Source of the DNA: Escherichia coli
Lineage (GTDB): Bacteria > Pseudomonadota > Gammaproteobacteria > Enterobacterales > Enterobacteriaceae
Length of the DNA: 64,000 nucleotides
Assembly (NCBI RefSeq): GCF_046105845.1
Contig: NZ_CP151004.1
Strand: one strand, 5' to 3'
Shown in pieces: positions 57,627 through 60,691 of the stretch; position 1 is the stretch's first letter, and every line of letters begins with the position of its first letter. Made by a program: the position numbers and the translations under genes. The notes beneath the pieces are model-generated. The model worked only from the letters and a program-made list of their open reading frames with translations, ran no database searches and was not told the DNA's origin.

Positions 57627-59253
57627 TAGGTTTCACTTTCGGAATATAGATTGAAAATAAGGTACCGCAGGGCTCATTATCTTCGAGAGTGATAACACCA
57701 CCGCAGCGCGTTACGTAGCTGGCAATCAAGTACAACCCAATGCCATGTTCGCCGGGCTCGTCAGCACGCGTACTGACACCCTGCTCAAATATTTTGTCTC
57801 GTAGAGACTCTGGAACGCCGCAGCCCTGATCGGCGACTTCAATCACCACATCATCGCCTTCATCGCTGAGGAATAATTCAACGATCTTGTTTCCTTCATC
57901 GCTACGTAGGCTGGCTTCGAAGGCGTTATCAAGTAAATTGCCCACAATGGCTGCAAACTCGGTGCTGTCCAGTCCTGGCGGCAGTTGCGAAAGCTGACTT
58001 CCGGGGACGATGACCATTTTTAGCCCCAGTTCGCGGGCGCGCTGCACTTTACCAAAAAGCAGCCCCGCCACCTGGCGATCGGCAAACGCCTCGCGCAGGC
58101 TATCAATAAGCTGTTGCTGGGCCTGAGACTCCCCCTGCACCATCGCCAACACGCGATCATACTCTTTCATCTGCAACAGACCATTGAGCGTCGACATCCA
58201 ATTGAGATGCTCGTGTCGCAATGTGCGCAGGCTCTCGACGTATTGTTTAATTTGCGTCAGTTGCGCATTGAGGGTGGATATTTCGTCTTTACTACGAAAG
58301 CTGATAATGGCCCCCAGCAAATCATCACCAGAACGAATAGCTTCCCGGTTGGCAATAACGCTCAGACCGTTAAAGTTCGCCACCACATCCTGACGTTTTT
58401 CATCAATCTGTTCGGTAAAGAAATCGGCGGGCCTGACCACTTCAGCAATGGGTTTACCCAACCATTGCCGTCCGGGGGAGCTCAGCCCCAGCATCTTTCT
58501 TGCGTTACGATTGATGGCGGTAATGTAACCATGCGGATCCACCGCAATGAGCCCTTCATAAACCGAACTAAACAGCGCCTCTTGCTGACGGACCACGCGT
58601 GCGATTTGCTTTGGCTCCATGCCCATCATCTGCCGACGGATATGCGCGGCCAGGAACCACGATAGCAACATCAGAATCCCTAACAGCACGACAAACACGC
58701 CAGCCATCGGTAATAAAAACTCAGCCCGCCAGCTATCGATTTTACTCACCAGGTAGCCAATCGACACCACGCCGATGACTTTTCCATCGTCATCAAAGAT
58801 TGGCGTTTTGGCACGCATCGCCATGCCAATTGACCCTTTCCCGGTGATGAAGTAGCTCTCCCCTTTCTCCAGCGCGCCCGGTTTGGTGAACTGCATAGGA
58901 TAACCAATTTTCTCCGGATTAGGATGGTAAAGACGAATCGAGTGGCGATCGCCAATCACCACATAATCGAAATCAGTATCTCTTTGTAATTTATCAGCGA
59001 TGGTCGCCAGCCTCTTGTAGTCACGCGTTTTCACTGCGCTGATGATACTGTCATTAGAAGCAATAATTTTTGCCTGATTCATTGCCATGTCGCGCACATG
59101 AAGCGTTAAATAGTCCTCAAAACTGGCCGTAAAATATTGCGCCAGGGCTGCAATGACAAATATTGAGAACACCAGAATCAGCAAAAAGATACGCAGCGGA
59201 AATGCCAGTCTTTGGAAAAATGCAAACTGTTTATTCTCGTTAAGCTGCAACAT
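57595..59253 (-). CDS. dpiB: Citrate-sensing histidine kinase DpiB (CitA), about 552 aa
   Basis: ORF 57595..59313; internal ATG 59253 gives MLQLNENKQFAFFQRLAFPLRIFLLILVFSIFVIAALAQYF...; periplasmic PAS domain, HATPase; 3' end overlaps dpiA by 32 nt. Confidence 0.93.
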   Translation of the reverse strand: MLQLNENKQFAFFQRLAFPLRIFLLILVFSIFVIAALAQYFTASFEDYLTLHVRDMAMNQAKIIASNDSIISAVKTRDYKRLATIADKLQRDTDFDYVVIGDRHSIRLYHPNPEKIGYPMQFTKPGALEKGESYFITGKGSIGMAMRAKTPIFDDDGKVIGVVSIGYLVSKIDSWRAEFLLPMAGVFVVLLGILMLLSWFLAAHIRRQMMGMEPKQIARVVRQQEALFSSVYEGLIAVDPHGYITAINRNARKMLGLSSPGRQWLGKPIAEVVRPADFFTEQIDEKRQDVVANFNGLSVIANREAIRSGDDLLGAIISFRSKDEISTLNAQLTQIKQYVESLRTLRHEHLNWMSTLNGLLQMKEYDRVLAMVQGESQAQQQLIDSLREAFADRQVAGLLFGKVQRARELGLKMVIVPGSQLSQLPPGLDSTEFAAIVGNLLDNAFEASLRSDEGNKIVELFLSDEGDDVVIEVADQGCGVPESLRDKIFEQGVSTRADEPGEHGIGLYLIASYVTRCGGVITLEDNEPCGTLFSIYIPKVKPNDSSINPIDR

Positions 59254-59632
59254 TGTTTTCCTTGCGGGTTGTCCCGAGCCTCTTTGACGAATGTAATTAA
59301 AATGTTGAATCAAAATACATAGATATTAAATATAATCGTGGCAAATTTTATTCATTAAATCAATTAAATCACTTAAACCTGCGGGTCATTTCGTAATTAC
59401 ATTAATTAAAAAACTTAAAACCATTAAATAAATAAAAAACCACTAACTCTATGTGAAATAAATCAAAATTTCACGCTGCAATACTCCTTAGGATGTATAG
59501 CGAAAGGAGAAAAAGATATACCTCGATCGCCCCCCTTTCTCCCAAGTGAAAATAAAAGGTTATCAGTTTGCAACATCGAACAACATTCGTTGCAAATCGA
59601 TAACAACATGCACCTTCAGGATACTATTTATT

Positions 59633-60691
59633 ATGTTCGGCAATGATATTTTCACCCGTGTAAAACGTTCAGAAAATAAAAAAATGGCGGAAATTGCCCA
59701 ATTCCTGCATGAAAATGATTTGAGCGTTGACACCACAGTCGAAGTATTTATTACCGTAACCCGCGATGAAAAGCTTATCGCGTGCGGTGGAATTGCCGGA
59801 AATATTATTAAATGCGTTGCTATCAGTGAATCCGTTCGCGGTGAAGGACTGGCGCTGACATTAGCCACCGAGCTAATTAACCTCGCCTATGAGCGGCACA
59901 GCACGCATCTGTTTATTTATACCAAAACCGAATACGAGGCGCTGTTCCGCCAGTGCGGTTTTTCCACGCTGACCAGCGTACCCGGCTTGATGGTGCTGAT
60001 GGAAAACAGCGCCACGCGACTGAAACGCTATGCCGAATCGCTGAAAAAATTTCGTCATCCAGGGAACAAGATTGGCTGCATTGTGATGAACGCCAATCCC
60101 TTTACGAATGGTCACCGTTATCTGATTCAACAGGCTGCAGCACAGTGCGACTGGTTGCATCTGTTTTTAGTTAAAGAAGATTCTTCACGCTTTCCCTATG
60201 AAGACCGGCTGGATCTGGTGTTAAAAGGCACCGCCGATATTCCACGCCTGACTGTGCATCGCGGCTCCGAATACATCATCTCCCGCGCTACGTTCCCTTG
60301 CTACTTCATTAAAGAACAGAGCGTCATTAACCATTGTTACACCGAAATTGATCTGAAGATTTTCCGTCAGTACCTCGCTCCCACGCTGGGTGTAACTCAC
60401 CGCTTTGTCGGTACTGAACCCTTTTGTCGCGTTACCGCCCAGTACAACCAGGATATGCGCTACTGGCTGGAAACGCCGACTATCTCCGCACCGCCCATCG
60501 AACTGGTTGAAATTGAGCGGCTGCGTTACCAGGAGATGCCGATATCCGCTTCCCGGGTACGTCAACTGCTGGCGAAAAACGATCTCACGGCTATCGCGCC
60601 GCTGGTCCCTGCAGTCACGCTGCATTATTTGCAGAACCTGCTTGAGCACTCCCGCCAGGACGCGGCAGCTCGTCAAAAGACCCCCGCATGA
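59633..60691 (+). CDS. citC: [Citrate (pro-3S)-lyase] ligase CitC (352 aa)
   Basis: ORF 59546..60691; ATG 59633 gives MFGNDIFTRVKRSENKKMAEIAQFLHENDLSVDTTVEVFITVTRDEKLIACGG... Confidence 0.93.
   Translation: MFGNDIFTRVKRSENKKMAEIAQFLHENDLSVDTTVEVFITVTRDEKLIACGGIAGNIIKCVAISESVRGEGLALTLATELINLAYERHSTHLFIYTKTEYEALFRQCGFSTLTSVPGLMVLMENSATRLKRYAESLKKFRHPGNKIGCIVMNANPFTNGHRYLIQQAAAQCDWLHLFLVKEDSSRFPYEDRLDLVLKGTADIPRLTVHRGSEYIISRATFPCYFIKEQSVINHCYTEIDLKIFRQYLAPTLGVTHRFVGTEPFCRVTAQYNQDMRYWLETPTISAPPIELVEIERLRYQEMPISASRVRQLLAKNDLTAIAPLVPAVTLHYLQNLLEHSRQDAAARQKTPA

Follow-up and report, generated by a model that had tools for sequence, protein, structure and literature searches.

Our analysis of the dpiB-citC intergenic region, within a 64,000-nucleotide stretch of Escherichia coli DNA (the window), indicates that this region is probably best explained as a composite promoter of the citCDEFXGT operon, in which two palindromes have different and unrelated parts. 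The conserved portion of palindrome 1 (GTGAAAT-N8-ATTTCAC; 59453-59474) is, judged from its sequence and spacing, very likely a class II CRP site, the palindrome itself being incidental. According to this explanation, cAMP-CRP would bind TGTGA-N6-TCAAA at position -41.5 of a promoter that would start near 59501, and the ATTTCAC arm would sit in an unconstrained interval (-33 to -27), complementing the left arm by accident in Escherichia. Phosphorylated DpiA would exert citrate control from AT-rich direct repeats located further upstream (59344-59437), and palindrome 2 (core TTGCAAC-N14-GTTGCAA; 59568-59595) would most likely matter, if at all, as an RNA hairpin. Two candidate roles could be envisaged for such a hairpin: a structured element of a 132-nt citC leader or, on the minus strand, a weak intrinsic terminator that would stop antisense nog1 transcription short of the citC promoter and dpiBA.

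Both palindromes were found at the positions given by a previous sequence-only reading of this DNA, which had correctly placed them in an AT-rich region between dpiB and citC and the end of the second one 38 bp before the citC ATG. The spacer (59254-59632) is 379 bp long with 32% G+C. It is bounded on the left by the start codon of dpiB (citA) (59251-59253, minus strand), as given by the ORF list and by the RefSeq annotation of K-12 and of the identical stretch of E. coli strain GF43, and on the right by the ATG of citC (59633-59635, plus strand), which opens a 352-aa product in both the PGAP and the K-12 annotation and at which tblastn matches begin with residue 1. A query of 378 bases (59256-59633) was 100% identical to strain GF43 and was present in 5,419 of 5,426 complete E. 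coli genomes. K-12 MG1655 carries both palindromes unchanged, and palindrome 1 is invariant in the six E. coli strains compared.

To assess how often such inverted repeats arise by chance, we used dinucleotide-preserving shuffles of the dpiB-citC spacer. Three perfect 7-nt inverted repeats separated by at most 20 nt were observed, versus a mean of 1.15 in the shuffles (P = 0.15), and 23% of the shuffles contained one or more such repeats having at least two G/C in each arm, so that palindrome 1 taken alone is no more than would be expected by chance. We also built an alignment of the dpiB-citC spacer from 24 genomes (Escherichia, Citrobacter, Salmonella, Intestinirhabdus, and Enterobacter). 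In this alignment the block T-TGTGAAATAAATCAAAA (59451-59467) varies hardly at all, and the right arm ATTTCAC (59468-59474) is restricted to Escherichia, the other genera having ATTTACC, ATTTATC, AATTACC, or similar sequences. On the evidence of this alignment, the match of the right arm is a coincidence confined to Escherichia, and the conserved unit is not the palindrome itself. As the right arm of palindrome 2 is also found only in Escherichia, neither palindrome keeps both half-sites in orthologous regions, contrary to what would be expected of a conserved dimer operator.

The conserved block coincides with a CRP-type 22-mer, CTA-TGTGA-AATAAA-TCAAA-ATT (59449-59470; core 59452-59467, centre 59459.5), which matches the CRP core TGTGA-N6-TCACA at 9 of 10 positions. 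In the shuffles, the chance of a CRP-core match of this quality anywhere in the spacer was P = 0.008. The sequence-only reading had stated that neither palindrome fits CRP spacing; this was mistaken for palindrome 1, whose left arm forms the TGTGA half of TGTGA-N6-TCAAA, and the misjudgement came from pairing TGTGA with the wrong partner.

In a looser scan of all fetched loci, with a search pattern that required the left half TGTGA, an element of the TGTGA-N6-TCAAA type was identified upstream of citC in 44 loci from about ten genera, including Escherichia, Citrobacter, Salmonella, Intestinirhabdus, Buttiauxella, Atlantibacter, Edwardsiella, and Ewingella, and some of these loci have a neighbour other than dpiB. 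The distance from the element to citC is about 175-186 nt (86-157 nt in some genera). The N6 spacer varies freely, with 12 different sequences across the 44 loci, and the right half-site is TCAAA in 41 loci and TCATA in the other three. A TAnnAT hexamer (TACGAT in 27, TAGGAT in 11, and three single variants) is present in 41 of the 44, always at +37 to +42 counted from the T of TGTGA. The sequence between the site and the hexamer, which includes the right arm of palindrome 1, holds little information, and positions +20 to +27 almost none.

This fixed offset identifies TAGGAT (59489-59494, plus strand; TACGAT in most other genera) as the predicted -10 hexamer of the citC promoter. The CRP centre lies 29.5 bp upstream of the first base of the hexamer; with TAGGAT as the -10 element, transcription would thus start near 59501 (±2 nt; about 651,987 in K-12) and the CRP centre would fall at -41.5. 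A CRP site centred at -41.5 is the textbook class II arrangement, as at galP1. The region resembles class II CRP promoters such as galP1 and melR in having TGTGA-N6-TCANA 29.5 bp upstream of a weak -10 hexamer with no -35 element. It differs from known CRP sites in that 41 of 44 loci have TCAAA in place of TCACA as the second half-site, and in that both binding and the transcription start are predictions here. A consensus scan of 59200-59700 called no sigma-70 promoter, a result which is expected for an activator-dependent promoter, yet which adds no support, and the tables of transcription start sites listed no entry for citC at this locus. A sigma-54 promoter (GG-N10-GC, 59558/59570) was considered by eye and rejected, as its GG is not conserved.

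The assignment of the conserved element to CRP was weighed against FNR. The right half-site TCAA (TCAAA; TTGA on the other strand) is an FNR-type half-site, the FNR consensus being TTGAT-N4-ATCAA, and activators of the FNR type are likewise centred at -41.5. A site for FNR, or for both CRP and FNR, would be compatible with the anaerobic induction of the cit operon, which it would drive from -41.5. However, the left half GTGA is of the CRP type at every site found, albeit with a search pattern that demanded TGTGA, and the right half TCAT of three loci belongs to neither the CRP nor the FNR type. Moreover, the literature names cAMP-CRP for PcitC and for its Klebsiella counterpart (PMC12405535, PMC2735749). 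We therefore consider an FNR or dual CRP/FNR site highly improbable.

The class II CRP reading of the element fits what has been reported for this operon. PcitC is regulated by DpiA (DpiAB), NarL, and cAMP-CRP (PMC12405535), and the citS-citC region of K. pneumoniae has sites for both CitB and CRP (PMC2735749). The promoter described here resembles the K. pneumoniae citS and citC promoters controlled by CRP and CitB, which also combine an A+T-rich upstream region for the response regulator with catabolite control. It differs from the Klebsiella citS-citC2 cluster in that the E. coli-type locus is paralogous to it, with CitC proteins that are about 55% identical.

The predicted -10 hexamer is overlapped by a putative NarL/NarP site of the 7-2-7 type, TACTCCT-TA-GGATGTA (59482-59497), which has two mismatches to TACYYMT-N2-AKRRGTA, a quality of match expected 2.5 times by chance per 64 kb. 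The corresponding block, AATAC(T/C)CCTTA(C/G)GATGTAT, is kept in Escherichia, Citrobacter, and Salmonella. Nitrate has been reported to inhibit PcitC (PMC12405535), and binding of NarL to this NarL-like site would account for such an effect.

Upstream of the CRP site, the interval 59344-59437 contains AT-rich direct repeats (TTAAATCAATTAAATCACTTAAA; TTAATTAAAAAACTTAAAACCATTAAA) which form a direct-repeat family with 9-bp spacing, and whose TTAAA-type blocks are near-invariant across Escherichia, Citrobacter, and Salmonella. According to the title of Meyer et al. (1997), the targets of K. pneumoniae CitB are A+T-rich. Two published reporter experiments bear on the location of the DpiA sites. 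Robinson et al. used EcoCyc to place the DpiA sites of E. coli on the citC promoter of C. rodentium and then deleted them; the resulting truncated PcitC, whose forward primer reads ...CATCTAACTCTTTGTGAAATAAATCAAA, lost its response to citrate (PMC12405535). According to our comparison, the 5' end of this primer corresponds to 59441 and lies 11 nt upstream of TGTGA (about -60), so the truncated promoter retains the CRP site and the whole leader, i.e., both palindrome regions, and these regions are thus insufficient for the citrate response. In the second experiment, an E. coli PcitC::gfp fusion was induced about 2-fold by anaerobiosis plus citrate (Fellner et al.; PMC4683798). The fragment used corresponds to 59187-59544 of the window and ends before palindrome 2, which is therefore unnecessary for the response.

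Taken together, these reporter results suggest that the DpiA sites lie upstream of 59441, and the repeats at 59344-59437 are, from their composition and conservation, the likely DpiA operators. The sequence-only reading had proposed both palindromes as candidate operators for DpiA or another regulator of citrate fermentation genes. This proposal holds insofar as the region is a control region of the cit genes and palindrome 1 touches a regulator site; a role of DpiA is unlikely at either palindrome. Although the palindromes share the spacer and the operon with the DpiA/CitB operators, they are not AT-rich elements of the TTAAA type, the arms GTGAAAT and TTGCAAC differing from the invariant repeats, and the operators taken from EcoCyc map upstream of the position that corresponds to 59441.

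Palindrome 2 is larger than first noted. Beyond the core at 59568-59595, it extends to a 46-bp imperfect inverted repeat, GTTATCAGTTTGCAAC-N14-GTTGCAAATCGATAAC (59559-59604), with arms at 59559-59574 and 59589-59604 that are complementary at 14 of 16 positions. For the spacer alone, a repeat of this quality was obtained in 0.8% of the shuffles (P = 0.008), although it could still be a product of chance given that a 64-kb window had been scanned. Within the predicted citC leader it covers about +59 to +104 and, lying downstream of the predicted start, would be transcribed. The RNA fold of the plus strand has a predicted energy of -16.5 kcal/mol (z = -6) and that of the minus strand -16.3 kcal/mol (z = -4.2); in a separate evaluation of the 46 nt as a minus-strand terminator, the energy was -15.5 kcal/mol. 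The element is present in one copy per genome, and on this ground a dispersed repeat or mobile element was rejected as its origin. An Rfam scan of 59000-59900 returned nothing real, only a spurious SCARNA7 match (17.6 bits versus a gathering score of 65).

The conservation of palindrome 2 differs within and outside Escherichia. Of the 5,419 E. coli genomes, all but one match a 65-nt stretch at 95% identity or more, and the hairpin is kept in six Escherichia lineages through 4-8 substitutions per lineage. Two common single-nucleotide polymorphisms were observed in E. coli. One is G/A at 59566 in the stem, where A replaces a G.T by a Watson-Crick A-T pair with T59597; the other, at 59577, is a C/T change in the loop, with T in K-12 and O157:H7. 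Against a background of random mutations introduced into the E. coli sequence, the minus-strand hairpin was more stable than expected in E. whittamii (P = 0.03) and in E. albertii (P = 0.013), and the result for the plus strand was not significant (P = 0.07-0.37); this comparison draws on a small number of non-independent lineages. Outside Escherichia, only the left part of the element (A-tract, GTTATCA, and TTGC) and the CAACA motifs are conserved. The right arm is new in Escherichia, folds computed per species for other genera are weak, and RNAalifold analysis of a 30-sequence leader alignment gave no consensus structure across genera.

These data allow the possible roles of palindrome 2 to be ranked. 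One of them is that of an operator in the DNA, bound by a dimeric or tetrameric regulator that would act as a roadblock downstream of the start, with DpiA, a LysR-type regulator (CitR/YbdO or YbeF), or ArcA as candidates. The repeat is extended and statistically unusual, TTGCAA occurs twice 22 bp apart, and CAACA (TGTTG on the minus strand) occurs three times at 10-23-bp intervals with two copies conserved across genera, all of which would suit an operator; in addition, deletion of citR raises citCDEF expression (PMC9068703). On the other hand, a dimer operator needs both half-sites, and the conservation outside Escherichia of the left half alone (GTTATCA..TTGC) argues against one. A distance of 30 bp between arm centres is atypical, each genome has a single copy of the element, and the citrate response neither needs palindrome 2 nor is conferred by it. 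Furthermore, the only CitR site confirmed by ChIP-exo is at its own promoter (PMC9068703). In a comparison by eye with their consensus sequences, none of FNR, IHF, PurR, ModE, Fur, and ArcA fitted palindrome 2 well. Overall, an operator at this position appears improbable.

A role of palindrome 2 as an RNA hairpin, in which we include every function at the RNA level, is the reading that we slightly favour. One such function concerns the minus strand, which carries nog1, an antisense ORF of 101 aa (59563-59868, minus strand; ORF list and PMC4683798) at which RefSeq has no annotation. This ORF is intact in all six Escherichia lineages, including E. albertii and E. whittamii, with the same GTG start and the same tandem stops TGA TAA. 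These stops (59560-59565) lie inside the 3' arm of the minus-strand hairpin and are the complement of the GTTATCA block, which is itself conserved far beyond Escherichia. Directly 3' of the hairpin, the minus strand reads CUUUUAUUUUC. The conserved A-tract TGAAAATAAAAG (59547-59558) gives on this strand the U-tract CUUUUAUUUUCA after the hairpin, the stem being followed at once by CUUUUAUUUUCAC.

Fellner et al. (2015) reported a predicted Rho-independent terminator after nog1, in a text that gives no coordinates for it (PMC4683798), and the palindrome 2 hairpin is the sole candidate that we saw for this prediction. Like intrinsic terminators, and like the predicted nog1 terminator, it combines a stable minus-strand hairpin with a 3' U-tract and an upstream ORF that stops in the stem; the U-tract, CUUUUAUUUUCACUU, comes right after the stem with a T score of 2.65. 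Unlike intrinsic terminators, its stem is long, AT-rich, and bulged, with only 6 of 19 pairs being G-C, and it fails the d'Aubenton-Carafa rule (d = -36). The consensus scan of 59200-59700 called no terminator, and the tables of Adams 2021 have no 3' end near 651,933-651,942 of K-12, the locus being barely expressed in the conditions that they cover. Within the RNA-hairpin reading, termination of antisense nog1 transcription accounts for a sizeable share, and is in itself less likely than not.

It is less probable, though not remote, that palindrome 2 has no function. We rate in much the same way the broader view that both palindromes are chance features with no function of their own, the first a CRP half-site with a fortuitous match and the second a lineage-specific accident in the leader, whose conserved blocks would then serve other purposes. 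Palindrome 1 is indeed within chance expectation and its right arm is unconserved, and for palindrome 2 the novelty of the right arm in Escherichia, the lack of a structure conserved across genera, the non-significant maintenance on the plus strand, and the selection bias introduced by scanning 64 kb all point the same way, as does the neutrality of a double mutation of the right arm for fitness in aerobic LB. However, the hairpin survives the 4-8 substitutions per lineage genus-wide, with changes that are wobble-compatible or restore pairs, its minus-strand stability exceeds random expectation in two lineages, and the 65-nt stretch that carries it is nearly uniform among the 5,419 E. coli genomes. 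In view of these observations, we regard absence of function in both palindromes as unlikely, and retain the RNA hairpin as the preferred reading of palindrome 2.

The other candidate role of the hairpin lies in the citC leader. From the predicted start to the ATG, this leader is 132 nt long, and it carries the Shine-Dalgarno sequence AGGA (59618-59621, plus strand), located 11 nt before the ATG and with a GG that is invariant in the 30-sequence alignment. At its 5' end, the predicted leader has a further inverted repeat, H1 (GGAGAAA...TTTCTCC; 59506-59542, plus strand), the sequence of which differs between clades. The arms are GGAGAAA/TTTCTCC in E. coli, AGGGAA/TTCCCT in C. werkmanii, TCCGGGGAAAA/TTTTCCCCGGA in C. 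amalonaticus, and GTCAGAG/CTCTGAC in Salmonella. H1 is significant versus half-wise shuffles in C. amalonaticus, Edwardsiella hoshinae, and Salmonella, and weak or absent in others (absent in C. koseri and Buttiauxella).

Several additional features were observed in the leader. A block, TGAAAAnAAAAnGTTATCA (59547-59565), is conserved across genera. The pentamer CAACA is found three times on the same strand (59571-59575, 59581-59585, and 59604-59608), and at least two of its copies are conserved across genera. C/A-rich sequences of this kind are known as translational enhancers and as target sites of GcvB. In addition, GUGAAAAUA (59546-59554) is perfectly complementary to UAUUUUCAC (59648-59656), which corresponds to codons 6-8 of citC, and when the whole leader is folded, palindrome 2 and the ribosome binding site lie within the loop closed by the GUGAAAAUA/UAUUUUCAC helix. 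Several other genera show a weaker pairing, UGAA..UUCA.

These features could be read together as an undescribed cis-regulatory RNA, comprising the A-tract with GUUAUCA, the CAACA repeats, the clade-variable H1, and the pairing of GUGAAAAUA with codons 6-8, a proposal that we consider doubtful. If it were true, the hairpin added in Escherichia could tune citC translation or, as an antisense terminator, could insulate the citC promoter and dpiBA from nog1 transcription.

The extent of the leader depends on the start codon of citC. The EDL933 annotation (Z0762) gives a longer CitC of 381 aa that starts at GTG 59546. An N-terminal extension of CitC from this GTG, or a leader peptide, was considered and rejected, as five other Escherichia lineages have no start codon at this position, the indels between genera are not multiples of three, and the variable sites are without 3-nt periodicity. 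By these comparative data, citC starts at ATG 59633 and not at GTG 59546.

The position of the start also affects how a published allele is to be understood. The "translationally arrested citC" (delta-citC) allele of Fellner et al. changes GTTGCAAAT to GTTGAAGAT (PMC4683798), which in our coordinates is a two-base change in the right arm of palindrome 2. With citC starting at ATG 59633, this allele would be a change in the 5' UTR and not a knockout of CitC. It had no effect on fitness in aerobic LB (PMC4683798), a condition that does not test citrate fermentation and is thus uninformative about it.

The finding as a whole is ordinary and has largely been described already, since DpiA, NarL, and cAMP-CRP are recorded for PcitC and a nog1 terminator prediction has been published. 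Its significance beyond annotation is small, lying in the assignment of the conserved half of palindrome 1 to what would be a standard class II CRP site. The gain in annotation consists of likely DpiA operators upstream, a likely NarL site over the -10 hexamer, and the placement of palindrome 2 in the predicted transcribed leader; the predicted start and leader are now testable.

Finally, a further conserved element was observed at the dpiB side of the spacer. The sequence TGTAATTAAAATGTTG (59291-59306) precedes the start codon of dpiB by about 40 bp, and every aligned genus has it in the form TGTAAT(A/T)AAAATGTT. It resembles an ArcA-type direct repeat (TGTTA-N6-TGTTA) or, alternatively, may represent the DcuR site that presumably precedes citAB.
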